A DNA stretch of 64,000 bases. It comes from Nitrospirota bacterium (GTDB lineage Bacteria; Nitrospirota; UBA9217). Below, piece by piece: positions 27,329 through 64,000 of this stretch (positions are counted from its first letter, which is position 1; the number at the start of each line of letters is the position of its first letter). The stretch is taken from contig CAVUCU010000003.1 of assembly GCA_963740085.1 (NCBI GenBank), forward strand, positions 107,680 to 171,679, read 5' to 3'. The position numbers were made by a program, and so were the translations under genes. The notes beneath the pieces are model-generated. The model did not search any database, had not been told where the DNA came from, and worked only from the letters and a program-made list of their open reading frames with translations.

Positions 27329-28669
<1,341 letters not shown>

Positions 28670-30397: not shown

Positions 30398-30469
30398 AGT
30401 TCACAGTATCACAGGTAAACCGTCTCGTGCAACCATAAAAAGGGGTAACTACTCAGGTCAAAATCTAAG

Positions 30470-30550: not shown

Positions 30551-30621
30551 TAAGCCTGAACAGTTACAAAAAAAGGCTGAAGGAACGTTCTCCTTCAGCC
30601 TTTTGGAAACATTCTCTGCTG

Positions 30622-33663: not shown

Positions 33664-33808
33664 AAACAGAACAGCGTGCTAACACCTTGACAATATGCTC
33701 TTATTGAAAGGCGGCGTCCGATCAGTCCTCATCCACGACTGTTTTATTATGCAATGGCCTTTGGTTGAATACTCACACCATGTTGATTTTTATGATTAAT
33801 TTTGTCTG

Positions 33809-33837
33809 TTGCATCAAAACTAAAAACGTTGTAAAAT
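33809..33837 (+). promoter_or_regulatory. Sigma70-type promoter candidate for the REC-Lon operon
   Basis: TTGCAT (33809-33814), a 17-nt spacer, TAAAAT (33832-33837), and the ATG at 33867. Confidence 0.4.
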
Positions 33838-33866
33838 GCAACCATCTCAAAATCTCAAGGTGTTGC

Positions 33867-35876: not shown

Positions 35877-37400
35877 ATTACACTCCGAGCATCAGACAGA
35901 AGATAACACTCGGCTATTACGCCATCGTCGCCATGATCATCGGATTGTCCGTGTTCACCTTTCTGGAACTGCGGTACATCGAGAAGAAGATCATGTTCGG
36001 CGAGGCCATCTCGGAATTTTTCGATGCCACACTTGAGATCCGGCGCTTCGAAAAAAATTATTTCCTCTACGAGCAGCATTCGGACTACGACGAGAATATC
36101 CAATACGTGTCCCGGGCCCAGGACCTCATCGACAGCAACATCGCCGGGTTCACCTCGATAGCATCTGCTGAGCAGATGGCAAACGTACAGGAAAGTCTTA
36201 AAAAGTATAAGAACTTGATGGACCAATACGCGAAGATCGGCAGAGCAATACACGGTACGAAAGAACCTGTTTGCCGCAGGGATCCGGACCACCGGGAAAA
36301 ACATAATCACCATAGCAGAGAATATCTCCAAGACCGAGCGGAAGAACCTTCAGCAGATCCTGAGCAGTTCCCGAAACATCCTTCTCGTCTCGATCGTGCT
36401 TCTCTCTCTGGCGGCTATCGCCATAGGCCAGATACTTTCGCGAATGGTGGTCAAACCGCTGAAATCGCTTGAGAAGAGCATGGGGGTTATAGCCGGGGGT
36501 ACGTTCGAGCGAATTGCCATAAAATCCAAAGACCGTGAGATCGTCTCGCTCATGAACGCGTTCAACAAAATGTTGAAAGAGCTCGAACTGCATGAGCGGC
36601 ATCTGATCCAGTCCGAGAAGCTCGCGTCCCTCGGCACCCTTCTCTCCGGCGTTGCGCATGAATTGAATAATCCCCTGTCGAACATCTCATCGTCGAACCA
36701 GATACTGATGGAGGAATTCAAGGAAGCCCTCGAGAAGCAGTCTTCGCTGCCCTGGCCGCTGGACCCCGGCTTCACCAAGGAACTGCTCTCCCAGATCAAC
36801 GATCAGACGGACCGGGCCCGGAATATCGTCCGTTCACTTCTCGACTTCTCGCGGGACAGGGCGTTCAAAAAAGAATCGCTGTCGCTCAAGAACCTTTTTA
36901 ACGAGACCATCCAGTTCGTGAAGGGACAGGTGCCGACGAACATAGTAATCTCCCTTTCCATACCCGAGGACATCGCGATCTTTGCGGACAAACAGCGGAT
37001 GCAGCAGGCATTTTTAAATTTGATCAAGAACGCCATTGATGCGATCTCATCCGAGGAAGGGACGGTCGCCATCACGGCCGTGAAGCGCCGGGCGATGGAC
37101 GACATTGAAAATGAAAAGACCGGAATCTACAACTATCTCAAGTACCGCGGAAAGTGCACGCTGGACCAGGACACGGTCGACATCGAAATACGGGACAGCG
37201 GATCCGGGATACCGCTCGATATCATTTCGAAGATCTTCGACCCTTTTTTCACGACCAAGGATGTCGGCAAAGGCTCCGGGCTCGGCCTGTTCATTGTCCA
37301 CGAGATCATCAAGGAGCATGACGGCTGCATTGCGGTGGACAGCCATCCTGACAAAGGCACAAGGTTCCTGATACGGCTGCCGATCGGGCAAGAAGCCTGA
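35873..37400 (+). CDS. Sensor histidine kinase (2 TM, HAMP, HisKA, HATPase_c) interrupted by one frameshift
   Basis: Its ATG overlaps the Lon stop (ATGA). Track ORFs 35873..36472 (TM1 plus sensor, plausible up to ...LMDQYAKIG) and 36396..37400 (TM2, [29 protein letters not shown]) are joined by the frame open from 36219 (AEQYTVRKNLFAAGIRTTGKNIITIAENISKTERKNL...). Confidence 0.75.
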
Positions 37401-45498: not shown

Positions 45499-45944
45499 CT
45501 ACTTGATGATCTCAGGCGGTGCTTCGTTAAAAACCGCCCAGAATGCGCCGAACGTTTTCATCGCATCGATGAATTCATGGAAATCCACAGGCTTGACCGC
45601 GAGCGTTCGCGCCGTTGCGGTAACCCTGCTCCAGGTCCCGCTCTTCCCGCGAGGACGTCAGGATCACACGGGAATGAACTTCAGTTTGTCGTCGGCCCTG
45701 ACCCGTCTCAGCACTTCATGGCCGTCCACTTTCGGGAGCTTCAGGTCGAGAAGGATCACACCGGATTGCCGGGGGCACGGGAGGCGAATTTTCCCCGCCG
45801 GTAGAGGTAATCGAGGGCCTCTTCCCCGTCGCGGGCAACTTCGACGCCGTTCGCGAGATTATGCGCCGCAAGCGCTTCAAGCGTTAGTTCCAGATCATTC
45901 GGGTTGTCTTCCGCCAGCAGTATTCTCTTCAAGTTAGTGGTCAT
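45499..45944 (-). pseudogene. Rcp/CheY-like single-domain response regulator with three frameshifts
   Basis: Frame 1 is [25 protein letters not shown]...APGNPV. Frame 2 is [31 protein letters not shown]. Frame 3 is [22 protein letters not shown]. The last frame is AVKPVDFHEFIDAMKTFGAFWAVFNEAPPEIIK. The junctions are near 45758-45761, 45666-45669 and 45598-45603. Confidence 0.7.
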
Positions 45945-47871
45945 ATGCTTTCCTCCTTGTTTTGGGGAGCGAGAACCGGATGGTAGCGCCTTCGTTTACG
46001 ACACCTTCAGCCCACGTTCTCCCCGTGTCTATGGATAACCCGCCGTACATTGGCAAGGCCCACACCGGTCCCTTCGAAATCCTCGGGCTGGTGCAGACGC
46101 TGAAAAATATTAAAAAGCTTATCCACATATTTCATATCGAATCCCACTCCGTTGTCCCTGACATATACTACCATTTCCCCATCCGTGTCAGAGGATTCGC
46201 ATCCCACTTCGATCGTGGCCTTCGGGCGCGAACGAGTGAACTTGAGAGAATTTGAAAGAAGGTTCACGAACACGAGCTTCAGCATTGCAGGATCGCCCTC
46301 CACTTCCGGCAGTTCCCTGATGTCCCAATCGATGGTTCTCCCCTTGCTGTCCTCTTTCAAATCGTGCAACGCATCATCTACAACGGTCCTTAGTTTCACC
46401 CGCGTTGCCATCATCTCGGTCCGTCCCATGCGCGAAAAGGTCAGCAGATCGTCCACAAGCCTTCCCATGTGCCTGGCCGCTGTCGATATTACCTCCAGAT
46501 AATGACGGCTCTTTTCATCGAGCGTCATGGTGCGCTTATTCAGCAGATCGACAAAGCCGGTCATGTGCCGAAGCGGGGCACGGAGGTCGTGAGAGACCGA
46601 ATAGCTGAAGGCCTCCAGTTCCTTATTAGCGACTTCCAGCTGGGCGGTTCGATCGTGAACGCGCTGTTCAAGCTCTTCATTCAGCTTATTGATTTTTTCC
46701 TCTGTTTGTTTGCGTTCGGTGATGTCGCGCGTTACTTTTGAGAACCCGCGCAACCGTCCACCCCGATCTCTTAAAGCCGTTATGATCACGTTCGCCCAGA
46801 ACCGGGACCGATCCTTCCGCAGCCGCCAGCCCTCGTCCTCGAAACGCCCGGCAGTAATCGCTTCTTGTAAATCCTGTTGTGGTTTGCCAAGTGCAATGTC
46901 TTCCCGAGAGTAAAAGTAATTAAAATTCTTGCCGATGATTTCATTTTCGCGATACCCCTTGATGATCTCGGCCCCCGAATTCCAGCTCACTACGTTCCGT
47001 CCGGGTCAAGCATGAATATTGCGTAATCGCTTACCCCTTCTATCAACAGGCGGAAACGGTCCTCACTCTCACGAAGCGCCTTCTCCGCCCGGACACGCTC
47101 TGTGATTTCCTTTTGCATATTATCTATTGAAGTGTATGATTTCTTCAACCTCGCGGCCATTTCATTGCTCGCACGGGCGAGCTCCGAAAGTTCATCGTCC
47201 CCCTCTACTTCGATCCGATGATCAAGGTTGCCGGACCGAGAATTCCGGCCTTCGCTCAGCGCAGTAATTCGTTTCGTAAAGATACTGTACACTGCATTGG
47301 AATTCGCGACAACGATTACAACGACGCCGATAAAAAAGAAAACGATAAAAGCGTTTTCACGATCTCTCGCCCGTATGGCATTTTTCTGTTCTGCCTCGCG
47401 CATTCGCTTTATTGTGTCAGTCAATGCAGAGGCGTTTTGAAATACATGACTGAGCAACCTTGTCTCGGCCTCAGCAGAAAGAAGTTCCGCTCCCCCCTGG
47501 CGCTCATTTTTTTCGCGACTGTCAATGATCTTGTTGAACACGAGGACGGTTTGCACAAATTCTTCCCGCGCTTCTTCCAGCAACGCCTTCTCTCCCCTGT
47601 TCGTTAATAGCGTATCCGCCAGATCGATCAATTTTTCAAAATCTCCCGACTTGGCGATCCACTGGATCTGCGCTCGCGCCTCCTGATGCTGCAGATACTC
47701 ATCCCTTAATATCGTCCTTTCAAAATGCATGGTCCGCATCTTTTCTACAAGACCTGTTTTTTTGTCCGCCTGGAGCACTTCCAAGTACGACCAAAGAAGA
47801 GAAAGCAATGCGATGAAAAGCACGCCGAGGGAGATGTAGGAGTTAACTCTTAGCCTTGTCCTGATTTTCAT
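45934..47871 (-). pseudogene. Sensor histidine kinase (TM, HAMP, PAS, HisKA, HATPase_c) with two frameshifts
   Basis: ORF 46990..47871 ends inside a PAS domain (...EGVSDYAIFMLDPDGT) and ORF 46007..46990 continues it (VSWNSGAEIIKGY..., SHDLRAPLRH). The true C-terminus [21 protein letters not shown] is in the frame of ORF 45934..46128. The junctions are at about 46993 and at the C4 run 46021-46024. Confidence 0.7.
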
Positions 47872-47884
47872 ACGTCATTATCCC

Positions 47885-48891
47885 CTACCGGATTATTCTG
47901 ACCGCATCTGGTTTGACCGTCTGGAGGCCCTCAACATATATGAAGTCGAGGTAATTCGGAATGGTCCGGGCCGGGATCAGCCTGTTCTTTACCGCCCACC
48001 GCGACTGTTCCTCAAAGTTGAGAAGAAGGGCCTGGTCCAGTGTGACTCTAAGATTAAAGATATCCCATATCTCATCGAGGACAGGCTTGTCCGTTTTAAT
48101 GAAATTTGCAACAAGCCGACGCGCCTCATCAGGCTTCTGCTTCGCGAATGTCTCGGCCTTGATAAGGGCGCGCAGGACTTTATTTACAGCTTCGGGATGC
48201 TTTTGAATATATTCTCGACTTCCTGCGAGGCAAAAGGTCTCGGTGTAAAACTCTCCACCATAAAAGGTTATCCTTGTTTCCGAGATCCCTGCCAAGTTGT
48301 CTCAAGGTGGGGTTCCATGTCGAGACGCGTCCACCTCCGTGTCGAGGGCCTCAGACATCTCATCCGGCTTCATGTCGATAAATCTGACCTGATCTCTTGA
48401 CACCATGGACAAGAAGGAAGGAATCGGCAAAGAAATCCCCGTTGTGCGAACGTTACCCGATCTTTTTCCTTCAGATCAACGGGCTTCAAAATCCACCGGT
48501 CCTGCCTCGCAACAATGGCTTCATTCCTGCTGGCCCTCTGGATCACCGCGATCGTTGAGAGCATCTTCCGGCCATTATAGATAACAGAGAGGGGTATCTC
48601 CCACGGTCGCCAGGTCTGCCTTGCCCTCGATAACCGCATTGAGCGCTAATTTTCCGAAGAGATAGGACTGCGGCGTTGCAGCAGGCCTTCTTCTTTAAAA
48701 TACTCATTTGCAAAGGCGATATATACGAGGATGGCGTTCGATGCGGTCGAATAGGCAATGGTTATCTTTTCAGGCGGGCCAGACTGCCTTTGTGATGGTT
48801 TGCAGGCGCTGCTGAGGCAAAGGACCGTGACAACGGTCAAGATGGCGAGAGTCCTATAGAATAACTGTCTATTCCATCTGAATATTGACAT
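47885..48891 (-). pseudogene. ABC-transporter periplasmic substrate-binding protein (NMT1/THI5-like) broken by at least six frameshifts
   Basis: Pieces were read in different frames. They are a lipoprotein N-terminus LCLSSACKP...KITIAYSTASNAILVYIAFANEYFKEEGL, then GKLALNAVIEGKADLATVGDTPL, then VIYNGRKMLSTIAVIQRASRNEAIVARQDR. These are followed by GDFFADSFLLVHGVKRS, then VRFIDMKPDEMSEALDTEVDA, then ITFYGGEFYTETFCLAGSREYIQKHPEAVNKV... Confidence 0.7.
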
Positions 48892-48945
48892 TAGCCTCTC
48901 TCCTTTTGAATATTCGGACGTGTTGCGGGCTTCATTGTCCCTTTA

Positions 48946-49564
48946 TCAGTTTATCCAGTCCTCATAGGCCTTTTTCTCGCACGCGGGGCACAACCCATGC
49001 GAAAATTCAACCTCGGCATGCTCACTGATATAGCTCTCGATCTGGCTCCAGTATCCGTTGTCGCCCCTGATCTTCTTGCAGCTCGCGCAGATCGGGAGCA
49101 GTCGCGAATGCCTTTACCCGGGAAAGCGCTTCCCGGAGCTCCACGATGAGCCGTTCCCGTTCCTCTTCGGCTTTTTTGCGATCTTCCTTCTCTTTTACCT
49201 CAGCCAGGGCCCGTGTCACCGCCGGCGCAAGACGCGACAATTTGTCCTTCAAGACATAGTCCGTTGCACCGCTTTTCAGGGATCGATCGCCCGGTCTTCA
49301 CCACTGGCCTGAGACGAACAGGAAGGGGATATCCGGACATTTCTCTTTGCAGATAGCGAGGGCTGACAGACCATCGAAGGAAGGGAGTTTATAATCGGCG
49401 AGGACCAGATCGAATGCTCCGCGTTCGACGGCGGAGGTAAAATCATCACGGGTTTCGACTCGCACGATCTCGCAGACAACTCCCTCGTCGCCGAGCTTTT
49501 CCCGGATAAGCTCGGCGTCGTTATTGCTGTCTTCCAGATGAATGATCCGTATCAATGAGCTCAA
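48946..49564 (-). pseudogene. Response regulator with C-terminal LPICxxCKKIR Cys-rich domain, three frameshifts
   Basis: The REC domain is MSSLIRIIHLEDSNNDAELI...LVLADYKLPSFDG...FLFVSGQ. It continues as ASGEDRAID, then PLKSGATDYVLKDKLSRLAPAV...RVKA, each in a new frame. The last frame is LLPICASCKKIRGDNGYWSQIESYISEHAEVEFSHGLCPACEKKAYEDWIN. Confidence 0.7.
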
Positions 49565-49919
49565 GTAAGCTCCGCGAGTATAACGTCAGAAGCGTGTCAT
49601 CAGCCGGACGTCCTGTTGGAATACTGAAGAAACCAGCCTTGCTCGAATATTTTTTTTACACTGCGATTGTTTTGGTTCTTTGAGGGTTGATGAGGTGAGA
49701 ATGTTCACAACAGGTGTGCGTTACCGGCCAGGGGGGTGTATACTTTGTTACATGCCCGCATTCATATGACAATGTCCTTTATCCCAATCGATCACCGTTT
49801 TTACTTGAGAATAATTAAATATATCATAGGAGGCTGTTTTTATCAAGCCGCATCTTCATCCGTGTCTTCATCCGCCTGATCCGTCGCGAATAATCCGCCC
49901 GATCCTTCCGTAAGTCTCG

Positions 49920-52705: not shown

Positions 52706-53242
52706 CTACGTTTTTTTTGTGCGCGACGACGAGCCGTCTCCGAGCGCCTTGAGAATTCCCTGAAGCAGTGCCGTGGGCGTCGGAGGACAGCCGGGGATGC
52801 AGGCGTCCACGGGGATGACCTTGTCTATGCTTCCCAAAGACGCGTAACTCTCGCCGAATATTCCGCCGGTGCATCCGCAGTCGCCGACGGCAACCACGAT
52901 CTTCGGCGTCGGCGTGGCGTCGTACGTTCTCCTGAGGGCGATCTCCATGTTGATCGAGACCGGCCCGGTGACCAGGAGCATGTCCGCGAATCGCGGCGAG
53001 GCGGTAAAATGAATGCCGAAGCGCTCGCAATCGTAGATGGGATTGTTGATGGCATGGATCTCGAGTTCGCACCCGTTGCATGATCCGGCATCCACCTGGC
53101 GGATCGCCAGACTTCCCCGGAAGCGCTGTTTGACGACCTCCTCGAGCTGAACACCGATCTTTTCGATCTCCGGATCGGTGATGGGAGGGACCGGCTCGGT
53201 GACGATGCCGGTGCGGAATACCTGTTTAAGGATACGGATCAT
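52706..53242 (-). CDS. NuoB/HycG-like small subunit (Fe-S) of an Ehr/group-4-hydrogenase-like complex, copy 2
   Basis: The start is set at MIRILKQVF. GSCNGCELE, VAVGDCGCTGG and IPGCPPTP retain the cluster-binding Cys pattern of HycG/NuoB. Confidence 0.8.
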   Translation of the reverse strand: MIRILKQVFRTGIVTEPVPPITDPEIEKIGVQLEEVVKQRFRGSLAIRQVDAGSCNGCELEIHAINNPIYDCERFGIHFTASPRFADMLLVTGPVSINMEIALRRTYDATPTPKIVVAVGDCGCTGGIFGESYASLGSIDKVIPVDACIPGCPPTPTALLQGILKALGDGSSSRTKKT

Positions 53243-53268
53243 GGTGCTCCAAACAGAATAAAATTTAA

Positions 53269-53450
53269 CCACAGAGACACGGAGACACTGAGAAAAGATA
53301 ACTATTTATTGACGAGAGATTCTTCAGTCGCTCACGCTCCTTCAGAATCACAAAATGACGGATTCAATAATCTTTTTTCTCCCTTTCCCCCTCTTCTCCC
53401 TTTCTCCTTTATTATTTTAATATTTTCTCTGAGTCTCTGCGTCTCCGCGG
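53269..53450. repeat. Intergenic imperfect hairpin (R11) inside the Ehr-like operon
   Basis: The arms ccacagagacacggagacactgagaaaag (53269-53297) and ttttctctgagtctctgcgtctccgcgg (53423-53450) are 22/28 complementary. The loop is about 125 nt and contains a ctgaag/gagcg word element and a T/C-rich tract. Confidence 0.6.
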
Positions 53451-53461
53451 TAAAGGCGACC

Positions 53462-55033
53462 TTACAGATCATTTCCCGAATACGACTGATTAAAGCTCTT
53501 GTTGCATACCGGGAAATCGGGGACGATGTTCCCGTGGATGCACTGCTCCAGTCCGAGCCAGTTCAGGCTCGAGGGGTCCCTGACCATGCAGCGATTGATC
53601 TCCCCCTTCGGCCCCGACTGGACCCAGTAAATGATCTCCCCCCGCCATCCCTCGACTGCGGCGAATCCGGACCTGTCCGGGGCCGGTGCGTTGACGGGAA
53701 CGCTGACCTTTCCGGTCGGCAGGGTCTTCAGGAGCTCGCGGATGATGCGGACCGAATCACGGACCTCTTCCACCCTGACCCATGCCCGCGAATGGACATC
53801 ACCTGAAACGAGCACCGGTATGGTCACCCTGATGCGGTCATAGGGAGAAAAGGGATTATGGATACGGCAGTCGAGGTTCAAACCGCTGGCCCGCGCCACA
53901 AAACCCGTCATGCCAAGGTCCCGCGCCTTTTCGGACGAGAGAATGCCGGTGTCCCTCACCCGGTCTTCGACCGAAGAGTTCTCATCGTAGATGATCACGA
54001 GCCGCTCGAATTCCTTTGCAAGCCAGTCCATTTCCGAAAGGATCGTCGCAACACCTCCTGCATCGATATCGACGTCTACCCCTCCGGGAACGATCTTATC
54101 CATCATGAACCGGTGTCCGAAAAGAGTCAGGTTCGTGCGAAGCAGGATCTCTTTGAGCCGATGAAATTGATACAGGAGGAACGCAAAGGCCACGTCATTG
54201 CATATGGCGCCAAGATCGCCAATATGGTTGGCGATGCGTTCGCGTTCGAGAAACAACGCGCGAAGCCACAGCGCACGGTCCGGAGGGATACAGTCCGTCA
54301 TGGCCTCCACTGCGCGGGAATAGGTCAGGCAGTGCGCCGCGGTCGTATCTCCGGAAACCCGGCCGGCCAGGCGAAATGCCTCTTGCCATGTCAGGGACTC
54401 GAACCGCTTTTCTATCCCTTTGTGCACGTAACCGAGTCTTGCTTCAAGGTTGAGGATATCCTCACCCATGGCCTGAAAACGGAAATGGCCGGGCTCGATG
54501 ATCCCCGCGTGCACCGGGCCCACCGGTATCTCATAGACGCCCTCTCCTTCTGCGCGTATCCAGCGGTATTCGCCGTAAACCCGCGCCAGCCGCTGCGAAG
54601 CGTCAAAGGACTTTCTGAGCGGCCAGGCGTCCTCAGGCCAGTCCTCGTGCTTTATCCAGGGACGTGGGTCCGGGTGCCCGATGGGGATCACACCCATGAG
54701 ACTCCTCATCTGGCGCTCGAACCGGTACGCAGGAACGAACTTTTTCGTCAGGCTCGGGAATGTCGGGTCGTCAGCAGGCGCACTGGTTTTTATGACAAGG
54801 TATTCCGACTCCTTCCGATAGCAGGCGTATATCCCGAACCCCCTGTTGAACAGGGTCTCGTCCGATGCCCACTCGGCCGCGAGCAGGGCGTAGTCTTTCT
54901 TGAGCGCCTTTGCCGCTACGGCGAACTTTTCCCGGGGAACCATGAGAGATGTCACTGATGCGGGATGCAGAGATCCATCCTGCGTCGCGTCGGTTCCGAG
55001 GGCCGCTATGACTAACTCCTGCAATCTGCTCAT
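53462..55033 (-). CDS. NuoC-NuoD/HycE-like large subunit lacking all NiFe-ligand cysteines (Ehr-type), copy 2
   Basis: It starts at ATG 55033 (MSRLQELVIAALG), a 4-nt ATGA overlap with the upstream stop. The NuoC-like part has FPSLTKKFVPAYRFERQM, and EIPVGPVHAGIIEPGHFRF follows. At the L1 position it has GRVSGDTTAAH instead of RxCGxCxxxH, and the C-terminus is NQSYSGNDL instead of DPCxxCxxR. Confidence 0.8.
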   Translation of the reverse strand: MSRLQELVIAALGTDATQDGSLHPASVTSLMVPREKFAVAAKALKKDYALLAAEWASDETLFNRGFGIYACYRKESEYLVIKTSAPADDPTFPSLTKKFVPAYRFERQMRSLMGVIPIGHPDPRPWIKHEDWPEDAWPLRKSFDASQRLARVYGEYRWIRAEGEGVYEIPVGPVHAGIIEPGHFRFQAMGEDILNLEARLGYVHKGIEKRFESLTWQEAFRLAGRVSGDTTAAHCLTYSRAVEAMTDCIPPDRALWLRALFLERERIANHIGDLGAICNDVAFAFLLYQFHRLKEILLRTNLTLFGHRFMMDKIVPGGVDVDIDAGGVATILSEMDWLAKEFERLVIIYDENSSVEDRVRDTGILSSEKARDLGMTGFVARASGLNLDCRIHNPFSPYDRIRVTIPVLVSGDVHSRAWVRVEEVRDSVRIIRELLKTLPTGKVSVPVNAPAPDRSGFAAVEGWRGEIIYWVQSGPKGEINRCMVRDPSSLNWLGLEQCIHGNIVPDFPVCNKSFNQSYSGNDL

Positions 55034-56479
55034 TTCAACAACCCCACTGCCGTAGTGAACCAGCCGGCAAGAAATTTCGGTATGTACAGGCCGAGAACAA
55101 GGACCACCAGCATGTGCAGGATCACCGGGATATGCGCCGCCTTGATCATATGCTGATAGGCGGGCATCTCTCCCGCGACCATGGGCTGGACCTTTCGGAA
55201 AAGGGCCGCAAAGGACACCCCAAGCCCCAGAAGGAGGAACGGGCGCAAACAACGGCGCATCCTTGATCGTTGCCGTAAGGATCAGGAACTCGCTCGTAAA
55301 CACCCCGAAGGGCGGCATGCCGACTATTGCCATCACCCCGATCGCCATCCCCCACCCCACGAGAGGATTGCCCCTGATGAGGCCTTTGATCGAGTCCATG
55401 TCCTGCGTTCTGTGCATTTGAGACGCATGTCCCACCGTGAAGAAGATGGAAGACTTTGTCAGACTGTGGACCAGCATGTGAAGCAAGGCCCCGAAGGTCG
55501 CTACCGGCCCGCCCAGACCGAAGGCGAACGTGGCGATGCCCATATGCTCAATGGAAGAATAGGCAAACAACCGCTTGATGTCCTTTTGACGAAGAAGGGA
55601 AAAAGATGCAACGATGATCGAGAGGATGCCGAAGCCCATCATGATGTCCCCTGAATGGTGGGTGCCCGTGGACCCGTCCACGAGGACCTTGCACCGGACC
55701 AGCGCGTACAGCGCGATATTCAGCAGGAGCCCCGAGAGCACCGCCGAGATGGGTGTGGGCCCTTCGCTGTGGGCATCGGGAAGCCAGTTATGGATCGGCA
55801 CAAGCCCCACCTTGGTGCCGTACCCGACCATCAGGAACACAAAGGCCAGGGACAAAATCGTCGGCTCGAGCTGATCGCTCACCTTGCTCAGGTTCGTCCA
55901 GTGGAGGGCCGCGCCGCCGGCGCCGAGCACCTTTTCCGCGGCAAAGTACAAGAGCACGGTCCCGAACAGTGCAAGGGCGATTCCCACGCCGCAGAGGATA
56001 AAATATTTCCAGGCAGCCTCGATTGCCGCGGGTGTACGGTAGAGAGACACGAGCAGGACCGTGGAGAGCGTGGCCAGTTCCATGGCGATCCAGAGGATGC
56101 CGACGTTGTTCGTCAGGAGGCACAGCAGCATGGCAAAGATAAAGAGCTGGAACATGGCGTGATAGAAGCGAATCCGCTTGGAACCGATCGTGCCGTGTTC
56201 CCGTTCGCGGCGCATGTACCTTCTGCTGAAAATAGCGGTGGTCATGGAGACGAACGCGGTGAGCACGGTGAGGTAGACACTGAAGGCGTCAACGAAGAAG
56301 AAGTTGTCGCCGGCCAGTATCGGCCCCTGCTCGTAGACCTCGAGCGCCAGTACGAGGCTCGTCACGAACGTGGCGGCAGAGCCGAGGATGTTTATCTCGG
56401 GCGCGAACTTCCGGTCGCCGATAAAGGCGAGCGCCAGGGCCGCGAACAGCGGAACGACCAAGAGGATGAGAAGGGTCAT
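55030..56479 (-). CDS. NuoM/N- (HyfD/F-, MrpD-) like antiporter subunit, one frameshift near its C-terminus
   Basis: The N-terminal ~410 aa are in the frame of ORF 53462..56479 (…WLPDAHSEGPTPISAVLSG…). The last 76 aa are in ORF 55030..55260 (LLLGLGVSFAALFRKV...TAVGLLK). The junction is at the GGG run 55241-55243. Confidence 0.75.
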
Positions 56480-56505
56480 TTACACCTCAATATGGGTCAA
56501 TAAAG

Positions 56506-56594
56506 TCTATAGAGTTGATAGAGTTTGTAGAGTCTGTCGAGCCATAAATAATTTTAACTCGATGAACTCCCTGCACTCTACGAACTCTATAATC
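56506..56594. repeat. Intergenic imperfect hairpin of tagagtt words (R12)
   Basis: tctatagagttgatagagtttgtagagtctgtcgag (56506-56541) faces ctcgatgaactccctgcactctacgaactctataat (56558-56594). Confidence 0.55.
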
Positions 56595-56598
56595 TCTT

Positions 56599-57276
56599 TC
56601 AATCTTCTTCCTTCAACCTCGCCATCTGGTCCACATCCAGGCTGTCAAAGGTGGTGCTGATGTGAAAAAAGAACATCCCGAAGATGAACGCCGCGATCAA
56701 CAGGTCCAGGGCCACTCCCAGCTCGACCACCAGGGGCATGCCGTAGGTTGCGCTCGTTGCGGCGAACAGGAGCCCGTTCTCCATGGCAAGGAACCCGATG
56801 ATCTGGGTGACCGCGTGCTTGCGCGTGATCATCATCAGGAACCCGAGCATGACCGTGGCGAGGGCCACCGCGAGCGTGGACCGGGTCACGAGGGTCGAAA
56901 GTTCCCTGATGGGGGCCGTAAGATGGTACGAAAATATCACGAGGATGATCCCCATCAGCATCGTGGTAGGGATGTTCACAATTGTCTCCACTTCCTTATG
57001 TATCTTGAGCTTCACGATCAACCTATGTAAAATATAAGGCAGCAGTACTACCTTCATGGAAAGCGTCAGCACTGACGAGATGTACAGGTCATGCACTCCT
57101 CCCACATACCCCACCGTGGCGGTGCTCACGGCAAGCAGAAAACCCTGAAGCGCAAACAAGTGCAAAAGGGCGTTCATCCTGCGCTGTACCAGGAGGCCGA
57201 AGGCCGTCAGGAGGATCAGGGCCGCCAGAAGACTGTTGATCTGCGCTGCAAGCTGCATGTTCATATCGTTCCTCAC
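56599..57276 (-). CDS. HyfE-like (NuoK-related) membrane subunit
   Basis: 225 aa with about 7 TM. FLAMENGLLFAA is the conserved HyfE/NuoK-like glutamate helix. The start may be at 57264 or 57258. Confidence 0.7.
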   Translation of the reverse strand: MRNDMNMQLAAQINSLLAALILLTAFGLLVQRRMNALLHLFALQGFLLAVSTATVGYVGGVHDLYISSVLTLSMKVVLLPYILHRLIVKLKIHKEVETIVNIPTTMLMGIILVIFSYHLTAPIRELSTLVTRSTLAVALATVMLGFLMMITRKHAVTQIIGFLAMENGLLFAATSATYGMPLVVELGVALDLLIAAFIFGMFFFHISTTFDSLDVDQMARLKEED

Positions 57277-57294
57277 ACAGACAAATGCTCTTTA

Positions 57295-57369
57295 CCGCCA
57301 AGGCGCAAAGGACGCAAAGGAAACCTTGAAATTTGACCTCAACCCTTCGCGCTCTTCGCGCCTTCGCGG
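57295..57369. repeat. Intergenic imperfect hairpin (R13), same word family as R1
   Basis: ccgccaaggcgcaaaggacgcaaagg (57295-57320) faces cccttcgcgctcttcgcgccttcgcgg (57343-57369), 21/26 complementary. Confidence 0.6.
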
Positions 57370-57427
57370 TTCAAAGCCTTTGATTTGGCTTTCTTCATGT
57401 CTCCGCGACTCCGTGGAAAAAAACAAA

Positions 57428-58372
57428 CTACTCCAGCATGAAATACGAAAGCATCCCGAGCGTGGCGAATAGGAACGCGCTCCCCAGGAATTCGGTAATG
57501 CGGAAGATCCTCATCTTCGCCATGCCGGTTTCGATCAGCACCAGGGCCGCCCCCACGAACCCGAGTTTGAGCATCAGGATGGGAAACGCGGAGACGACCG
57601 ATGCCAGGTCATCATTCAAGGCAATGCCCAGCGGGAAAAAGGACGCGATCCCCAGGACAACAAAGAGAAAGAGTTTCATCATGCTCGACCATTCGATGAG
57701 CGCCAGATGTCTGCCGGAATACTCCAGGATCATGGCCTCGTGGATCATGGTGAGTTCGAGATGCGTGGCGGGATTGTCCACCGGCACCCTCCCCGTCTCG
57801 GCCAGCGCGATGAAGATGAATGCCAAGAGGGCGAACACGAGTGACGGCCTCAGCAGGGAATGTCCCTGCGAAATGACCAGCACGATCTGGGACAACGATG
57901 TGGATTTGCCGACCAGCGAGACGGCAAAAACAGCCATGAGCATGGCGGGCTCTGCCAGAGAGGCGATGGTCATCTCCCGGCTCGAACCCATGCCGCCGAA
58001 GGCGGTGCCTATGTCCATGCCCGCCAGCGCGAGAAAGAACCGTGCTATCGCAAAGAGCGCCACGAGGGCGATCACGTCCGCGGTAGCTGAAAAAAGCAGA
58101 TCCGTTGACAGCATGGGGATGATGCCGCCCGCCATGACCGAGACGCCGAATACCAGATACGGCGTAAAGCGGAATATCCACGAGGCATTCTCCGCCAGGA
58201 CAACGTCCTTTGACAGAAGTTTCCTGATGTCCCGGTAAGGCTGGAGCAGGCTCGGGGCCGTGCGACCCTGGAGCCAGCACTTCACCATCTTCACCCAGCC
58301 CGTGAACAGGGGCGCCATGGCCAGCAGAAGAATAATCTGCGCTATCTCCAGAATAAACGCGTTGATCAGCAA
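57428..58372 (-). CDS. NuoH/HycD/HyfC-like membrane subunit
   Basis: 314 aa. LAMAPLFTGWVKMVKCWLQGRTAPSLLQPYRDIRKLL is the typical HycD N-terminus, and there are 8 TM. Confidence 0.8.
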   Translation of the reverse strand: MLINAFILEIAQIILLLAMAPLFTGWVKMVKCWLQGRTAPSLLQPYRDIRKLLSKDVVLAENASWIFRFTPYLVFGVSVMAGGIIPMLSTDLLFSATADVIALVALFAIARFFLALAGMDIGTAFGGMGSSREMTIASLAEPAMLMAVFAVSLVGKSTSLSQIVLVISQGHSLLRPSLVFALLAFIFIALAETGRVPVDNPATHLELTMIHEAMILEYSGRHLALIEWSSMMKLFLFVVLGIASFFPLGIALNDDLASVVSAFPILMLKLGFVGAALVLIETGMAKMRIFRITEFLGSAFLFATLGMLSYFMLE

Positions 58373-58459
58373 TGGAAAGCTCCTAACCCCGAGAAGCCGA
58401 CGTCCTCACGCCGCAGTCTCGGGAAATCCTCTGCAAGATAATAAACATGCATTGACGGC

Positions 58460-60505
58460 TCACCTCAGAAATATCAGCAGTACGACGATCGTCACGAACG
58501 AATAAATGAGATAGACCTGGATATGGCCATGCTGCATCCTTCCGATCCGTCTCGAAATCCAAAAGCTTGCGACAACGACAGGCTGGTACAACCAGACCCA
58601 GAAGCGGTCCCTCACCTTGAGATGGTAATGCAGCCGCTCGGGGAAGGCCGGATGGGTCGCCGGCGGGAGCTGACGCACGCGCTCCTTGATGTTGAAGAGA
58701 TACCCGAAGATCCTCCGAAGAGGCATGGCAAACGAGGTGGCCGTGTACTGCATCCGGTTGGTGACCTTTTCGAATCCGCAGTCCCAAAGCGGCATGCGGC
58801 GAATGGTTCCGGGGCGTGTATGGAGCAACAGATAGGTCGCCACCACGACCGACAGGATGCCCAGGAAAGCGATGGGCGCCGAATAGGAGGCGCGCGCAGC
58901 GGCAATCGGCGTGAGCCACATCCAGCCGAAACCCGATGCTGACGCGGCGATCGTGCCGCCCACCAGCTCCTCGGCAATAGGGTCCATCCACCTGATCATG
59001 AATGTGGGCAGGATACCGAGGCCAAGACAGGTGAGAGCCCCAAGCAGCATGCCGATGCGCATGGACCAGTCCACTTCATGGACACGGACAGGATGATGTC
59101 CACGCTGGTGTCCCAGAAAGGTTACGCCGAATGCCTTTACGAAACAGGCTGCCGCCAGCGCGCTCGTCAGTGCCAGGAGCGCGGCCCCCAGCGGGATAAG
59201 CAGGTTCAGGAGCGGACTGGGAAGCGCGGGTGACAGCAGGAACGCCTGATAGGTCAGCCATTCCGATACGAACCCGTTAAATGGCGGCAGTGCCGATATC
59301 GAAATGCACCCGATCAGAAAGAAAACAGCGGTCCAGGGCATGAAGCGAATGAGGCCGCCCATCTCCTCCATATTCCGCTCATGCGTGGCATGAAGCACGG
59401 CGCCCGCTCCCATGAAGAGCAGCCCTTTGAACATGGCATGGTTAACGGTGTGATAGAGACCGGCGATGAGCGCGAGGGCGGCCAGCAGGGACATGTCGAA
59501 GGAGGTGAAGATCATCGCAAGCCCGATGCCGATGAGGATGATGCCGATGTTCTCCACGGAATGATATGCAAGGAGCCTCTTCAGATCATGCTGCATCAGC
59601 GCATACAGAACACCCATGACCGCGGACACCAGCCCGAACACCAGAACGAGGGCGCCCCACCACCAGGGGAAAACGCCGATCAGGTCGAAGACGACGCGCA
59701 CGATGCCGTAGATGGCCGTCTTAAGCATTACGCCGCTCATAAGAGCGGAGACGTTCGAAGGCGCGACCGGATGGGCCTCGGGCAGCCAGACATGAAGCGG
59801 TATCACACCGGCCTTGGCGGAGAACCCGAAGAAGGCGAGCAGAAACGCGATTGAAGCCCAGCCAGCGGGGAGGTCTGCTTCACGCATGGCGTCGAATGTG
59901 TAACCTTCAAATCCCTTGAACCCGGTTGCCAGGCCGGCCATGATCCCGAAGGAGAGGAGGATCGCGATCGCCCCCACGTGCGCGACGACCAGATAGAGGA
60001 AGGCGGCCCTTCTGTTCTCAATTCGCTCATCTTCAAAAAGCACCAGGAAGTACGAGGCAGCCGCCATCATCTCCCAGGCGATCAGGAAGAAGAACGCATC
60101 GTCGGCCAGGACCACGAGGAACATCCCCGCGAGAAAGAGCGAATAAAATACGACAAGACTGGTCACCGACCGGTGCCCCAGGTAACCCTTGACATATCCG
60201 AGAGAGTAGATGGATACAAAAAAAGCGAGCAGTCCGACGATCACGAGAAAGAAACCGGACAAGAGATCGAGCCGAAGATGAAACGGCAGGTCGGGCAGGC
60301 CCAGAGGCACGATGACCTGGTAAGGAGTGCCGCTCGATACCGCCCAGATACCGGCGACCGTCGCCAGCAGGGAAGCGATCGTGGTGAAGGAAAAACCGAG
60401 TGTGATGAGAAGTCTCTGGTTCCGACGGAGAAACGGCGTCAGCGCAAGCGAAAACAGAAGCACCGCAAACGATGAGGATATCAAGCTGATGGGTGAAAGA
60501 TCCAC
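58460..60505 (-). CDS. NuoL/HyfB/HycC-like antiporter subunit
   Basis: 681 aa polytopic protein. WEMMAAASYFLV and VWLPEAHPVAPSNVSALMSGVMLK are proton-pump (Mrp/NuoL) signatures. Confidence 0.8.
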   Translation of the reverse strand: MDLSPISLISSSFAVLLFSLALTPFLRRNQRLLITLGFSFTTIASLLATVAGIWAVSSGTPYQVIVPLGLPDLPFHLRLDLLSGFFLVIVGLLAFFVSIYSLGYVKGYLGHRSVTSLVVFYSLFLAGMFLVVLADDAFFFLIAWEMMAAASYFLVLFEDERIENRRAAFLYLVVAHVGAIAILLSFGIMAGLATGFKGFEGYTFDAMREADLPAGWASIAFLLAFFGFSAKAGVIPLHVWLPEAHPVAPSNVSALMSGVMLKTAIYGIVRVVFDLIGVFPWWWGALVLVFGLVSAVMGVLYALMQHDLKRLLAYHSVENIGIILIGIGLAMIFTSFDMSLLAALALIAGLYHTVNHAMFKGLLFMGAGAVLHATHERNMEEMGGLIRFMPWTAVFFLIGCISISALPPFNGFVSEWLTYQAFLLSPALPSPLLNLLIPLGAALLALTSALAAACFVKAFGVTFLGHQRGHHPVRVHEVDWSMRIGMLLGALTCLGLGILPTFMIRWMDPIAEELVGGTIAASASGFGWMWLTPIAAARASYSAPIAFLGILSVVVATYLLLHTRPGTIRRMPLWDCGFEKVTNRMQYTATSFAMPLRRIFGYLFNIKERVRQLPPATHPAFPERLHYHLKVRDRFWVWLYQPVVVASFWISRRIGRMQHGHIQVYLIYSFVTIVVLLIFLR

Positions 60506-60559
60506 GTCCCTGCCTCCACAACTATCCGTGCATCTGTGAGCGAAAGCCGATCTAAATTT

Positions 60560-61089
60560 TCAGGTTCTTTTCGTGCAGGAATCTATCAGCTGGGAAAGCC
60601 CCAGCAGGATGGCCGTGGGAGTCGGCGGACACCCGGGGATATAACTGTCAACAGGGATTACGTTCGCCGCGCCGTTCGTAACGGCGTAACTTCCCTTATA
60701 TATTCCTCCGTCCTTTGCGCAGTCGCCGCAGGCGACCACCAGCCTTGGCTCCGGCGTCGCGATATACGTTCTTTTGAGCGCCAGTTCCATCTGTCGCGAC
60801 ACCGGACCGGTCACGAACAACACATCGGCATGTCGCGGTGATGCGACAAAATCGATGCCGAACCGCTGAATATCGTAGACGGGATTAGTGAGCGCCGTGC
60901 ATTCCCATTCACAAGCGTTGCAGGAACCTGCATCTATGTGCCTGATCCGGAGCGACCTGTTAAAGATTTTATCAATGTTTTTCTGAAAGTCAACAATCTT
61001 CGCCGCCTGCTCGGGAGTAACAGTGAATCCCTCGGGAAACGGGATGACTTTCTTTTCTTGATTATATTTTTAATGATCTCTTTAAACAT
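60560..61089 (-). CDS. NuoB/HycG-like small subunit, copy 1, with one frameshift in an A-run near the 5' end
   Basis: ATG 61089 gives MFKEIIKNIIKKRK. The frame then has to shift to read VIPFPEGFTVTPEQAAKIVDFQKNIDKIFNRSLRIRHIDAGSCNACEWE...ACGDCAKDGG...IPGCPPTP, which continues into ORF 60560..60823. The shift is at the T4 run 61053-61056 (AAGAAAAGAAAG on the coding strand). Confidence 0.75.
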
Positions 61090-61167
61090 AATTTACACCC
61101 TGCGTTATGCAGACTGAAGCCTGCGGCTACCCGCGAGTCATTTATCTTTTCCTGACCTCTGATTTCC

Positions 61168-61205
61168 CGACTCCGAACTTCGAACTCCTAACTCCGAACT
61201 TCTCC
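61168..61205. repeat. Half-element of ctccgaact words (related to R4 right arm)
   Basis: cgactccgaacttcgaactcctaactccgaacttctc. No convincing complementary arm was found nearby. Confidence 0.4.
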
Positions 61206-61211
61206 CATCTC

Positions 61212-62783
61212 TCACATGTCCGTCCCTGAATACGACAAATTAAAGCTCTTGTTGCAGAGCGGGAAATCGGGCACGATGTTCCCATGCACCGCAAAAGGCA
61301 CCGCGGGCCAGTTGCAGTACGACGGCGAACGGAGCTTCACCCGGAGCGGTTTCCCGTCCTTATCCGCCATGACCCAGTAGAAGAGCGATCCGCGCGGCGA
61401 TTCGACATATCCCAGCGAAGAGGCATACGGTGCAGCCTGTTTCGCCGGAACGGCCAGACCACCTTTATAACCGCTTTCGATGAGCTCGTGGATCATGGAT
61501 ATGGAACATTCTATTTCTTCAGACCTGATCATCATGCGTGCAAACACGTCTCCCTTTTCCAGGGTATGCGATTCAAAGATCAGGCGGTCGTAGAGCAGAT
61601 GGGGATGGGCCTTTCTCATATCGTCGGTCAGGCCCGATGCACGGGCGGCCACGCCCGTGACGCCGAACTTCCGCGCGAGGTCCTTCGACAGCCGTCCGGT
61701 GTTCTGCATCCGCTCGATGTGCGATACCGAGCCCAGCAGCAATTTCATCAGCTCTTTGTATTCCCGGGTGACGATATCGAGGGTCTTGAGAACATCATCG
61801 GCCAGGGCAAAGACATCTTTTGTGACGCCGCCGATCACGTTCACGCCGCGCAGATACCTGCTGCCCGTGAGCCGTTCATTGAGCTGCATGAGCCGTTCCT
61901 TGATGACCGCGCCGTTCATATACCCGAGCGCGAATGCCGTTCCGGCGCACATGTTCCCGATATCGCCGATATGGTTGTAGAGCCGTTCGAGCTCGAGAAC
62001 AAGGGTCCTGACCGCAGCCGCCTTTTCAGTGATCCCGACGCCCGTCATTCGTTCAACAGCCATGCAGTACGCCGTCCCGTGCGCAAAGGACGAGGTGCCC
62101 GACACGCGTTCAGCGAGCTTCACTCCTTCGACAAACCCGAGTTTTTCGAAATGCTTCTCTGTGCCCTTGTGCGTGTAGGACAATCTCGGTTCGAGGAAGA
62201 AGATCGTCTCTCCCACGGCACTGAACCTGAAGTGCCCGGGTTCAATGATGCCCGCATGCACCGGCCCGACGGGGATCTCGACGATGCCCTCGCCGGCAAC
62301 TTCCATGAACGGATGAGGGACCTTTTGCAGTGTCCCCTCACCCCACTCTTTGAGATCTGATCCGGAAAGAGACCAGTCCTTGCGAAGCGGATGAGAATCC
62401 GCGGGGAACGCCTCATGAAAAACAAGTCTGCGCTGGTCCGGATGCCCTTGCGGGTTGAGGCCGAACATATCCATGATCTCGCGCTCGTACCAGTGGGCGG
62501 CGGGGATATGCGGCGTCAGCGACGGGAACCGGGGATCGGATTCCTTCACCGGCAGGACAATGAGGAAGAACCGGTCTACACCGGGCACGGTGAATACGGT
62601 ATGGACCCTGAACACCCCGTCCCGCTCACGCTCGTCCGTCGCGAACATCAGGCGCAGCAGGGCGTGCTTCTCCGCGGACAGATAAAGGCAGACGTCCCTG
62701 AAATCGTCGCGCTTGACCTCGATTGAGGACTCGTTCAAATAGTCTACGGTCCTGACCGCCTTATGAAACACCTTGTCCATCAA
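61212..62783 (-). CDS. NuoC-NuoD/HycE-like large subunit lacking all NiFe-ligand cysteines (Ehr-type), copy 1
   Basis: 523 aa. The NuoC-like part has FPSLTPHIPAAHWYEREIMDMFG, and EIPVGPVHAGIIEPGHFRF follows. At the L1 position it has ERVSGTSSFAH, and the C-terminus is NLSYSGTDM. There is a 4-nt overlap with the upstream antiporter-like gene. Confidence 0.8.
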   Translation of the reverse strand: MMDKVFHKAVRTVDYLNESSIEVKRDDFRDVCLYLSAEKHALLRLMFATDERERDGVFRVHTVFTVPGVDRFFLIVLPVKESDPRFPSLTPHIPAAHWYEREIMDMFGLNPQGHPDQRRLVFHEAFPADSHPLRKDWSLSGSDLKEWGEGTLQKVPHPFMEVAGEGIVEIPVGPVHAGIIEPGHFRFSAVGETIFFLEPRLSYTHKGTEKHFEKLGFVEGVKLAERVSGTSSFAHGTAYCMAVERMTGVGITEKAAAVRTLVLELERLYNHIGDIGNMCAGTAFALGYMNGAVIKERLMQLNERLTGSRYLRGVNVIGGVTKDVFALADDVLKTLDIVTREYKELMKLLLGSVSHIERMQNTGRLSKDLARKFGVTGVAARASGLTDDMRKAHPHLLYDRLIFESHTLEKGDVFARMMIRSEEIECSISMIHELIESGYKGGLAVPAKQAAPYASSLGYVESPRGSLFYWVMADKDGKPLRVKLRSPSYCNWPAVPFAVHGNIVPDFPLCNKSFNLSYSGTDM

Positions 62784-64000
62784 TTCACTCCAAAGATCTG
62801 TACGCAGGACCTGATGGTATCGTCGATGAACCGGGGGACCCTGACGCCCATCACCACGATCGCAACTGCCATCACGATCATGACGATCGTGCCGAGCATA
62901 TTCCCCGGGTTAAATCCTGCAGCGGGGTGATGGCCGGGATCAAGAGAACCGGATTCCCCGGGTTTCCCGAACAGCATCTTTCCGAAGCCGGAAAGCACCC
63001 CGTAAAACACGATGGCGACGAAGAACAGGAAAAAGGCAACCACGAACCACAGGCCCCTGTCCACGCCGGCCTTCAGGACAGTGAACTCGCTCACAAATAT
63101 ATTGAACGGCGGTGTGCCGGAGAGCGACAACATGCCGATGAATGTCAGCGTTCCCAGGAGCGGCATGGACGTGAGCACTCCGCTCACGTTGGCGATGTTC
63201 GTAGATCCGAAACGTGACTGGATCTTTCCCGAGGCGAAGAACATGAGCGGTTTTGCGAGGGCATGGTTCAGGACATGCAGGAGCGCGCCGTAGATACCGA
63301 CCGGCCCGCCGATGCCGATACCGAGCGAAATGATGCCCATGTGCTCGATACTGCTGTAGGCAAGGAGCCGTTTGTAATTGTCCTGTACCAGGATGAAGAT
63401 CGCTGAGATGCCCAGGGAGATAAGGCCGAAGATGATCAGGAGGTTGCCGGTAAAGGCGCCGCCCGTCGACGGTTCGACGATCATGACAAAGCGCATGATC
63501 CCGTAGAACGCCGTATTGAGCAGTATCCCCGAAAGCAGGGCGCTGATCGGGCTCGGCGCCTGGCTATGGGCGTCGGGCAGCCAGTTGTGCACCGGTGCAA
63601 GGCCGGCCTTGGTGCCGTAACCGACAAGCACGAAGATAAAGGCGAGTTTCATGGTCTCGGGATTAAGCTTGCTTGCAACACCGCGAAGCACGGTCCAGTT
63701 GAGCGCGCCCTCGGTCCCCATGACGGACGTGGAGGCATAGTAGGTAATGAACGTGCCGAGCAGGGCAAAGGTGATGCCGACCGTGCACAGGATGATGTAC
63801 TTCCACGCGGCCTCGACCGCCAGCGGCCGCTTGTGGAACCCGAGGCCGATGAGAAGAGCGGACACGATGGTCGTTGCCTCGATCCCGATCCACATGACGG
63901 CAAGGTTGTTCGCCATGCACACAAGCAGCATCGTGAAGACAAAGAGATGGAACAGACCGTAGTAGGTCCTCACTCCGCGGAGATTCATCAGCCCCGTTTC
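62780..64000 (-). CDS. NuoM/N- (HyfD/F-, MrpD-) like antiporter subunit, N-terminus outside the window
   Basis: The reading frame is open to the window edge. WLPDAHSQAPSPISALLSG and the overall similarity to the 55030..56479 product indicate that about 90 N-terminal residues are missing here. Confidence 0.75.
   Translation of the reverse strand, partial: ETGLMNLRGVRTYYGLFHLFVFTMLLVCMANNLAVMWIGIEATTIVSALLIGLGFHKRPLAVEAAWKYIILCTVGITFALLGTFITYYASTSVMGTEGALNWTVLRGVASKLNPETMKLAFIFVLVGYGTKAGLAPVHNWLPDAHSQAPSPISALLSGILLNTAFYGIMRFVMIVEPSTGGAFTGNLLIIFGLISLGISAIFILVQDNYKRLLAYSSIEHMGIISLGIGIGGPVGIYGALLHVLNHALAKPLMFFASGKIQSRFGSTNIANVSGVLTSMPLLGTLTFIGMLSLSGTPPFNIFVSEFTVLKAGVDRGLWFVVAFFLFFVAIVFYGVLSGFGKMLFGKPGESGSLDPGHHPAAGFNPGNMLGTIVMIVMAVAIVVMGVRVPRFIDDTIRSCVQIFGVN

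Follow-up and report, generated by a model that had tools for sequence, protein, structure and literature searches.

The window analysed here is a 64,000-nt stretch of a Nitrospirota genome (assembly GCA_963740085.1, contig CAVUCU010000003.1, positions 107,680-171,679), and our subject is the row of nine minus-strand genes at 52706-64000, which encodes complexes of the Ehr (energy-converting-hydrogenase-related) type. Profile assignments were taken from Pfam and NCBIfam, and solved relatives from a sequence search of the PDB. Pfam places the nine genes in the order that an earlier sequence-only reading had given them (Table 1), with an alpha/beta hydrolase gene next downstream. We divide them into set A, which runs off the end of the window, and set B, all of which lies inside it. 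The first ~90 codons of ehrD-A lie beyond that end, and there is no in-frame stop upstream of 63988. The best explanation of the region as a whole, to which we give a probability of about 0.8, is that it forms the distal part of a 12-gene row of two tandem, anciently diverged, self-sufficient ehrABCDLS sets in an uncultured Nitrospirota bacterium, which the names of homologues place close to Thermodesulfovibrionia.

Table 1. Ehr genes of the window in coding order, followed by examples of the HycF-like domain in retrieved loci (L-numbers).
Feature	Position	Strand	Assignment and remarks
ehrD, set A: NuoM/HyfF-like antiporter subunit, partial	62780-64000	-	Pfam Proton_antipo_M (2e-57); 3' 407 codons only
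ehrL, set A: NuoC-NuoD/HycE-like large subunit	61212-62783	-	Pfam Complex1_30kDa + Complex1_49kDa; RVSGTSSFAH and NLSYSGTDM-stop
ehrS, set A: HycG/NuoB-like small subunit	60560-61089	-	Pfam Oxidored_q6 (4e-30, corrected protein); frameshifted as assembled, intact 176 aa
ehrA, set B: NuoL/HyfB-like	58460-60505	-	Pfam Proton_antipo_M/N; 681 aa
ehrB, set B: NuoH/HycD-like	57428-58372	-	Pfam NADHdh (1.3e-36); 314 aa
ehrC, set B: HyfE-like	56599-57264	-	weak Pfam Oxidored_q2 match; 221 aa
ehrD, set B: NuoM/HyfF-like	55030-56479	-	Pfam Proton_antipo_M; frameshifted as assembled, intact 482 aa
ehrL, set B: large subunit	53462-55033	-	Pfam Complex1_30kDa + Complex1_49kDa; RVSGDTTAAH and NQSYSGNDL-stop
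ehrS, set B: small subunit	52706-53242	-	Pfam Oxidored_q6; HycG (7z0s_G) 1.3e-38; 178 aa; final gene of the row
HycF-like domain	L013 12024-12819
HycF-like domain	L018 11451-12348
HycF-like domain	L060 11519-12320
HycF-like domain	L014 2448-2793
HycF-like domain	L015 6974-7304

The sequence beyond position 64000 can be read from a second assembly. The NuoH-like and NuoL-like proteins of set B are encoded residue-for-residue on a 185-kb contig in ENA (ERZ25039463:contig_88551), which matches the window at 99.8 % identity over 14.1 kb and extends past its end. Two pieces of this contig are among the retrieved loci, as L001 and L002. In L002 the full ehrD-A (496 aa, L002 6234-7724) is preceded by genes for a NuoL-like (663 aa), a NuoH-like (305 aa) and a HyfE-like (219 aa) protein, and before set A come a 139-aa open reading frame (ORF) and a TauE gene. 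Because the near-identical contig has this second NuoL/NuoH/HyfE trio directly before the first NuoM-like gene, a complete membrane arm belongs to each head, and the true layout, read from the two contigs together, is NuoL-NuoH-HyfE-NuoM-large-small twice in tandem.

The sequence-only reading had instead described a single operon with two heads on one NuoL/NuoH/HyfE set, and had not seen such an architecture described before. In that scheme a partial module duplication would have left two heads and two NuoM-like subunits sharing one arm, in one complex or in two. The 64-kb window does contain one NuoL/NuoH/HyfE set only, and both NuoM-large junctions are the same 4-nt ATGA overlap of stop and start (62783-62780 and 55033-55030), as had been reported. 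However, the region upstream, which that reading had itself named as the place where the idea might fail, holds a second full membrane arm. The 12-gene layout is found again in L003, L006 and L086, six-gene sets are solitary in many genomes, and the two sets are only 33-50 % identical. Unless the strain of the window departs from L001 at precisely this place, the upstream genes refute the single operon as it was described, and a shared arm of any form is now extremely improbable. The two heads on one arm are an artefact, produced where the end of the window cuts through the first copy, and the novelty claimed for the architecture goes with it. An odd operon architecture at the edge of a window should be compared with extended contigs before it is called new.

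The two sets are old. Within the range of identity given above, which holds subunit by subunit, ehrA-A and ehrA-B are 41 % identical and the two large subunits 40.5 %, and at the DNA level only two short pieces of conserved coding sequence are repeated from one set to the other. A bootstrapped neighbour-joining tree was built from 86 large subunits with HycE as the root; in it the set-A sequences form a Nitrospirota clade with 100 % support that is not sister to B, and the set-B subunit sits near sequences from Rokubacteria, Methylomirabilota and Chloroflexia. Each set also occurs without the other, set A as a compact operon of six genes in L004 and L007-L012, and set B in L081 and L083; in L087 only a set-A small-subunit remnant precedes set B. 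We therefore rejected a recent tandem duplication, on both the identity and the separate clades. The module duplication that had been read from the shared ATGA overlap is a weak proposal on the same grounds, and on the solitary occurrence of each set elsewhere. The sets are, to judge from these comparisons, an old paralogous or xenologous pair set in tandem in one lineage. The A/B spacer, from the ehrS-A stop to the ehrA-B start, is 54 nt in the window (60505-60560) and 82 nt in L086. No terminator-like site was found in the window's spacer, and promoter and terminator scans gave counts equal to those of shuffles, which carry no information on the operon structure.

Two Ehr sets at one locus also occur outside Nitrospirota, in tandem in L025 (Verrucomicrobiia, 22-12403) and ~5 kb apart in L034 (Fibrobacteria, 101-15277). 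L003 has a partial third NuoL/NuoH-like pair just upstream of its sets, divergently oriented (L003 1-2941).

Two of the window genes are broken as assembled. The N-terminus of ehrS-A (ATG at 61089, MFKEIIKNII...) is off-frame from the remainder, with one base missing near 61059, and the gene has no usable start within its own frame. In ehrD-B an extra C at 55243 makes the ORF listing read a 1005-aa NuoM-large fusion, and the true C-terminus lies in another frame, with its stop at the TGA of the ATGA overlap. An additional G in L001 leaves ehrS-A intact at the length given in Table 1; ehrD-B is likewise intact there, and so are its orthologues in L006, L086 and L087. L001 carries a frameshift of its own in ehrL-A (L001 6040), and an exact-protein look-up of that large subunit with either start codon gave no match. 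Four indels over 14 kb thus break different genes in the two assemblies, and in a sister assembly (L088) the housekeeping genes for ornithine transcarbamylase and dihydroorotase are fragmented. For these reasons the two window frameshifts are most likely assembly errors and not signs of pseudogenes. Three sensor-kinase genes of the window also appear split into overlapping ORFs (28810-30397, 35873-37400 and 46007-47871), which, with the indels, suggests an indel-prone assembly. Programmed frameshifting at 61059 and 55243 was considered and rejected, as neither site has a slippery heptamer and both genes read in frame on the near-identical contig.

If one set were a decaying, non-functional duplicate, frameshifts would be its expected sign, and the window has two. 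Set B is also frameshift-split in L003 and L088, a VapBC insertion interrupts it in L003 and an insertion sequence (IS) in L087, and in L087 set A has been cut down to its remnant. Against such decay, the window's frameshifts strike one gene in each set and have no counterpart in the 99.8 %-identical contig, L006 has the full 12 genes unbroken and the L086 locus likewise all nine of its Ehr genes, and the equal fragmentation of housekeeping genes in the sister assembly points to indel errors. We also compared the rates of nonsynonymous and synonymous substitution (Ka/Ks) in the genes of both sets with their orthologues in L006. The ratio was 0.02-0.09 for 11 of the 12 genes, values that are rough with Ks near saturation, yet far below 1; ehrL-B gave no ratio, its Ks being saturated. 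These ratios imply that both sets are maintained by selection, and a pseudogene cluster is highly improbable.

The relatives' Ehr clusters are, as annotated from their sequences, invaded by small selfish genes. In L003 a 23S_rRNA_IVP-family gene lies between ehrB and ehrC of set A (7286-7645), and the VapBC pair between ehrC and ehrD of set B (16324-16919). The IS of L087 lies between ehrL-B and ehrS-B (11752-13053), with a DDE transposase gene in this spacer. The equivalent spacer of the window is unusually long, at 219 nt, and is occupied by an imperfect inverted repeat (53265-53299 and 53420-53454) with 35-nt arms, 77 % complementary and 120 nt apart.

Some points weigh against two self-sufficient sets in tandem. 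The first three genes of set A were read from the near-identical contig and not from the window itself, and the window's frameshifts could be real in this strain. In the phylogenetic placement, which had been proposed as a check, set A is a well-supported clade with B elsewhere, but the deep nodes of the large-subunit tree are weak (35-63 %).

Both large subunits are of the fused NuoC-NuoD type. The protein from ehrL-A aligns over its full length with Escherichia coli HycE (7z0s_E, E=1.1e-88, compared with 2.5e-43 for Nqo4, 2fug_4), and RVCGICGFAH and DPCYSCTD of HycE become RVSGTSSFAH and NLSYSGTD. A count by column gives S, S, S, G at the four NiFe-ligand positions of copy A and S, T, S, G in copy B. 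The earlier claim that both copies lack all four NiFe cysteines is thus borne out by alignment as well as by column count, and the comparison with NuoD, also suggested then, puts Ile and Gly in the place of the quinone-site His and Tyr. Across the family, 82 of 86 members have no Cys at any of the four columns. In these 82 Cys-less subunits the former ligand positions are Ser (78/82), Ser or Thr (66/82), Ser (82/82) and Gly (81/82), a near-invariance which implies that the former NiFe pocket is still under selection. All four cysteines are kept in four of the 84 large subunits that came from loci (L013, L017, L055 and L080). These have the gene order of the Cys-less loci and lie on basal branches, and are, on their predicted ligands, true group-4f-type hydrogenases.

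In some Cys-less large subunits a cysteine does occur one residue away from an old ligand site. Three Acidobacteria (L076-L078) have SGDNCFSH and SYSGCDR, and most set-A relatives (L004, L007-L012) have SYSGCDM where the window has SYSGTDM.

Neither window complex is able to be a hydrogenase. A cryptic enzyme, holding NiFe or another metal centre through alternative ligands and turning over H2, might be entertained because the fold family, the GxxxxxH motif and the spacing of the C-terminal motif are hydrogenase-like, and because the true four-Cys members share the six-gene order. The ligand columns of nearly the whole family argue otherwise, and as the sequence-only reading had noted, hyp and endopeptidase genes are absent, with none among the ~45 larger window ORFs scanned. 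The literature, too, treats Ehr as a non-hydrogenase (PMC10284858, PMC12342949, PMC7304191), and the chance of hidden hydrogenase activity is close to negligible.

The small subunits tell a different story from the large ones, as had been claimed: both window copies keep the four proximal [4Fe-4S] cysteines, and CxxC, C and C align with those of HycG and MbhJ. The scan of species genomes (one genome per species) gave at least 600 pattern-matching stretches, at least 595 of which encode a relative. The best 80 loci of these at least 595 were taken for comparison, and the six-gene cluster is present in all 80. Four Fe-S cysteines are present in 72 of the 80 small subunits, the window copies included. 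The absence of a HycF/NuoI-type gene also stands, as a search of the 64-kb window for a CxxCxxCxxxC ferredoxin motif found none in ORFs of 60 aa or more. Elsewhere this is not so. In ~15 of 83 loci, most of which have a Cys-less large subunit, two such motifs occur between the genes for the two subunits, large and small, and in the ORFs read this HycF-like 2x[4Fe-4S] domain is either fused N-terminally to the small subunit or encoded by a separate ~110-aa gene before it (Table 1). In the fused protein of L013, residues 1-107 match HycF (7z0s_F) and 109-259 match HycG. The window subunits keep only the first ~20 HycF-like residues, M[FI]xxLKxxxxTGxVT-like (53180-53242 and 61030-61089). Ehr small subunits thus look like derivatives of a HycF-HycG fusion, in which the ferredoxin domain would have been kept or lost clade by clade.

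In one clade with 100 % support, other residues have also taken the place of three of the small subunit's cysteines, or of all four (T/C/D/D or S/E/G/D). Its loci (L019, L029, L032, L040, L066, L072 and L079) include metagenome-assembled genomes (MAGs) of Levybacteria and Daviesbacteria of the candidate phyla radiation (CPR), Thermoleophilia, Endomicrobiales and Bdellovibrionales. Their complexes would be without ligands for both NiFe and the proximal cluster. Taken with the domain variants, this may describe a series of cofactor loss, from NiFe with HycF domain and [4Fe-4S] cluster, to Cys-less with HycF domain, to Cys-less with one cluster as in the window, to no ligands at all.

Both sets are of the Ehr type, as the sequence-only reading had proposed, with a HycE-like large subunit without NiFe cysteines, an Fe-S small subunit and a six-gene set with no NuoI or HycF. 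Since the mid-2000s these complexes have been remarked on for the connection that they make between complex I and the group-4 hydrogenases. The Ehr cluster of Geobacter sulfurreducens (GSU0739-0745) encodes a NuoL-like EhrA, a HyfE-like EhrC, EhrL and EhrS (PMC7894505), and the six-gene Desru_3260-3265 cluster of Desulfotomaculum ruminis has the same composition (PMC3569383). Compared by description only, the Geobacter system resembles that of the window in its subunit set, its six-gene cluster, its Cys-less large subunit and Fe-S small subunit, and its lack of HycF/NuoI (PMC7894505, PMC10284858, PMC12342949), and differs in being described with one cluster where two divergent ones are present here. 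The function of Ehr has been called unknown (PMC10284858, 2023; PMC12342949, 2025; PMC6349859; PMC7304191). Our literature searches found no solved or assigned function and nothing on Ehr in Thermodesulfovibrio, and the PDB sequence search found no Ehr structure. The family itself is already known, and what is new here is a lineage with two old paralogous Ehr clusters in tandem.

The nearest relatives that keep the catalytic centre are the group 4f [NiFe]-hydrogenases (Ehf; Desru_3260-3265, L013, L017, L055, L080). They share with the window the order L-H-E-M-large-small, the six-gene membrane architecture and the PVHAGIIEPGHFRF core, their large subunits are 38-46 % identical to those of the window, and their branches are basal in the Ehr tree. 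They keep the four NiFe cysteines, and at least L013 has a fused HycF-like 2x[4Fe-4S] domain. The window has neither the L1 nor the L2 CxxC motif, with S/S(T)/S/G in place of the ligands and the ~20-residue remnant in place of the domain.

Among solved structures, E. coli formate hydrogenlyase/hydrogenase-4 (7Z0S) is the best relative of EhrL and EhrS, with the scores given above and in Table 1, and EhrA, EhrC and EhrD come closest to HyfB, HyfE and HyfF. The top NCBIfam match of ehrD-A is hydrogenase-4 subunit F and the paralogue ehrC-A matches 'hydrogenase 4 membrane subunit' at 1e-26, both under the cut-off; the equivalog thresholds for HyfB (636.8 against 667 bits), HyfE (94 against 136) and HyfF (457.8 against 610) are missed. 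Unlike Hyc and Hyf of E. coli, Ehr lacks NiFe ligands, a HycF/HyfH subunit, a HycB/FdhF partner and the C-terminal extension that an endopeptidase would process. For EhrD the closest solved homologues are MbsH and MbhH of Pyrococcus furiosus MBS (Mbx) and MBH (6U8Y, 6CFW), which are membrane-bound, complex-I-like relatives, and ehrD-A keeps the Glu of transmembrane helix (TM) 5, Lys of TM7, His of TM8, Lys of TM11 and Glu of TM12 in the alignment to both; these antiporter motifs can also be read in EhrA and EhrD of both sets. Ehr, with six subunits and a single cluster, contrasts with MBH and MBS. The latter are built of 13-14 subunits, among them a NuoI-like one and an Mrp module, and MBS is a precedent for a hydrogenase-derived complex with altered chemistry. 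Complex I shares with Ehr its homologous core modules and the charged residues of its antiporter subunits; its NuoE/F/G/I/A/J and the NuoD quinone residues are missing from Ehr. Mrp antiporters likewise share the MrpA/MrpD-like charged residues, but MrpB/E/F/G are absent from Ehr, whose sets have NuoH-, NuoB- and NuoCD-like subunits instead.

How such a complex might work can be proposed only tentatively. At somewhat less than even odds, we favour a redox-coupled or redox-gated ion translocator as the mechanism of each window complex. Each would be a complex-I/Mrp-like H+/cation translocator, with the EhrL-EhrS pair seated on EhrB as a coupling or gating module. The single [4Fe-4S] cluster would exchange an electron with a soluble low-potential carrier, and a change at the former NiFe pocket, lined by Ser/Ser(Thr)/Ser/Gly, would drive or gate ions through EhrB-EhrC-EhrD-EhrA. 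The sequences show gene content, architecture, the loss or retention of ligands, selection and distribution; complex assembly, cluster occupancy, the electron partner, and ion specificity and direction are all points that we infer. A link to redox chemistry is supported by the conservation of the four Fe-S cysteines and by the loci with a HycF-like domain.

Several findings weigh against the redox-driven part of this proposal. There is no electron-input subunit, and the 5-kb flanks of the 80 loci hold no conserved redox partner gene; the flank genes that do recur are generic sensor kinases, an ArsR/SmtB regulator upstream (12 loci) and an ABC ATPase (7 loci). The quinone residues of NuoD are absent, Nqo4 His38 and Tyr87 corresponding to Ile179 and Gly228 of ehrL-A, and one well-supported clade also lacks the small-subunit Fe-S ligands. 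The family is present in CPR bacteria and in an Acetobacterium MAG. CPR bacteria and Acetobacterium are generally regarded as quinone-free.

These findings lead to the main rival, which we think unlikely on balance: that the complexes are non-redox, Mrp-like cation/proton antiporters driven by the proton-motive force and serving pH or ion homeostasis, with the peripheral arm a plug and the [4Fe-4S] cluster structural or vestigial. The scaffold does persist without redox ligands in the clade of CPR, Thermoleophilia and Endomicrobiales, the antiporter residues are intact, and the lack of a conserved redox partner, the upstream ArsR/SmtB regulators and the occurrence in lineages taken to be quinone-free would all fit. 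Two published observations point the same way. A Methylocystis 'group 4f' cluster is up 4.2-4.5 log2 at pH 5 (bioRxiv 10.1101/2025.08.29.672306), and the Ehr genes of Nitrospira moscoviensis are not induced by H2 (PMC12342949). The AARVS motif suggests that the Methylocystis cluster is possibly Cys-less, and its acid induction fits ion or pH homeostasis under the redox and non-redox readings alike. However, antiport alone sits poorly with other evidence. Strong purifying selection keeps the four Fe-S cysteines in both window copies, and 72 of the 80 small subunits have them, several Cys-less clades keep the HycF-like two-cluster electron wire, which is hard to explain without electron transfer, and the former ligand positions are near-invariant and not decaying.

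What the presence of two sets means for the cell is more speculative. At least four related lineages retain the 12-gene head-to-tail row, with short A/B spacers and, in that of the window, no terminator-like site, and its genes are under strong purifying selection. The pair could be co-transcribed, and the two complexes could have different ion specificities, work in different directions or join in a supercomplex. It is improbable, in our estimate, that the two are a functional pair rather than redundant and that in the family as a whole a hydrogenase scaffold has become an ion transporter, either redox-sensing or non-redox.

Ehr complexes are widespread, with at least 595 matching stretches that include nitrifiers, acidobacteria, CPR bacteria and Thaumarchaeota. 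The best 80 of these span Nitrospirota, Acidobacteriota, Verrucomicrobiota, Rokubacteria, Chloroflexi, Firmicutes and Planctomycetota, together with CPR, Melainabacteria, Thaumarchaeota and methanogen-related archaea, and nearly all retrieved loci are ordered L-H-E-M-large-small or small-L-H-E-M-large. The window leaves the general picture of Ehr unchanged and adds to it a lineage with the two clusters in tandem. The points that could guide experiments are the near-invariant Ser/Ser(Thr)/Ser/Gly pocket, the HycF-HycG fusion origin and the clade without [4Fe-4S] ligands.

Other parts of the window also show features of note. At 23704-32554 a module of a TauE/SafE-family exporter and tandem Usp is repeated, with sigma-54 two-component genes beside the second copy; a third TauE gene is the one just upstream of Ehr set A (L002 561-1589). 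A 4.3-kb segment at 45602-49892 is absent from L001; it holds a HAMP-containing ORF, a PAS/HisKA/HATPase ORF and several small ORFs, with no obvious target-site duplication at its junctions. At 33765-35876 lies a Lon-type protease with an inserted response-regulator receiver domain, and at 19937-22802 two neighbouring paralogous MshEN + DUF202 proteins, whose genes overlap by ~150 nt.

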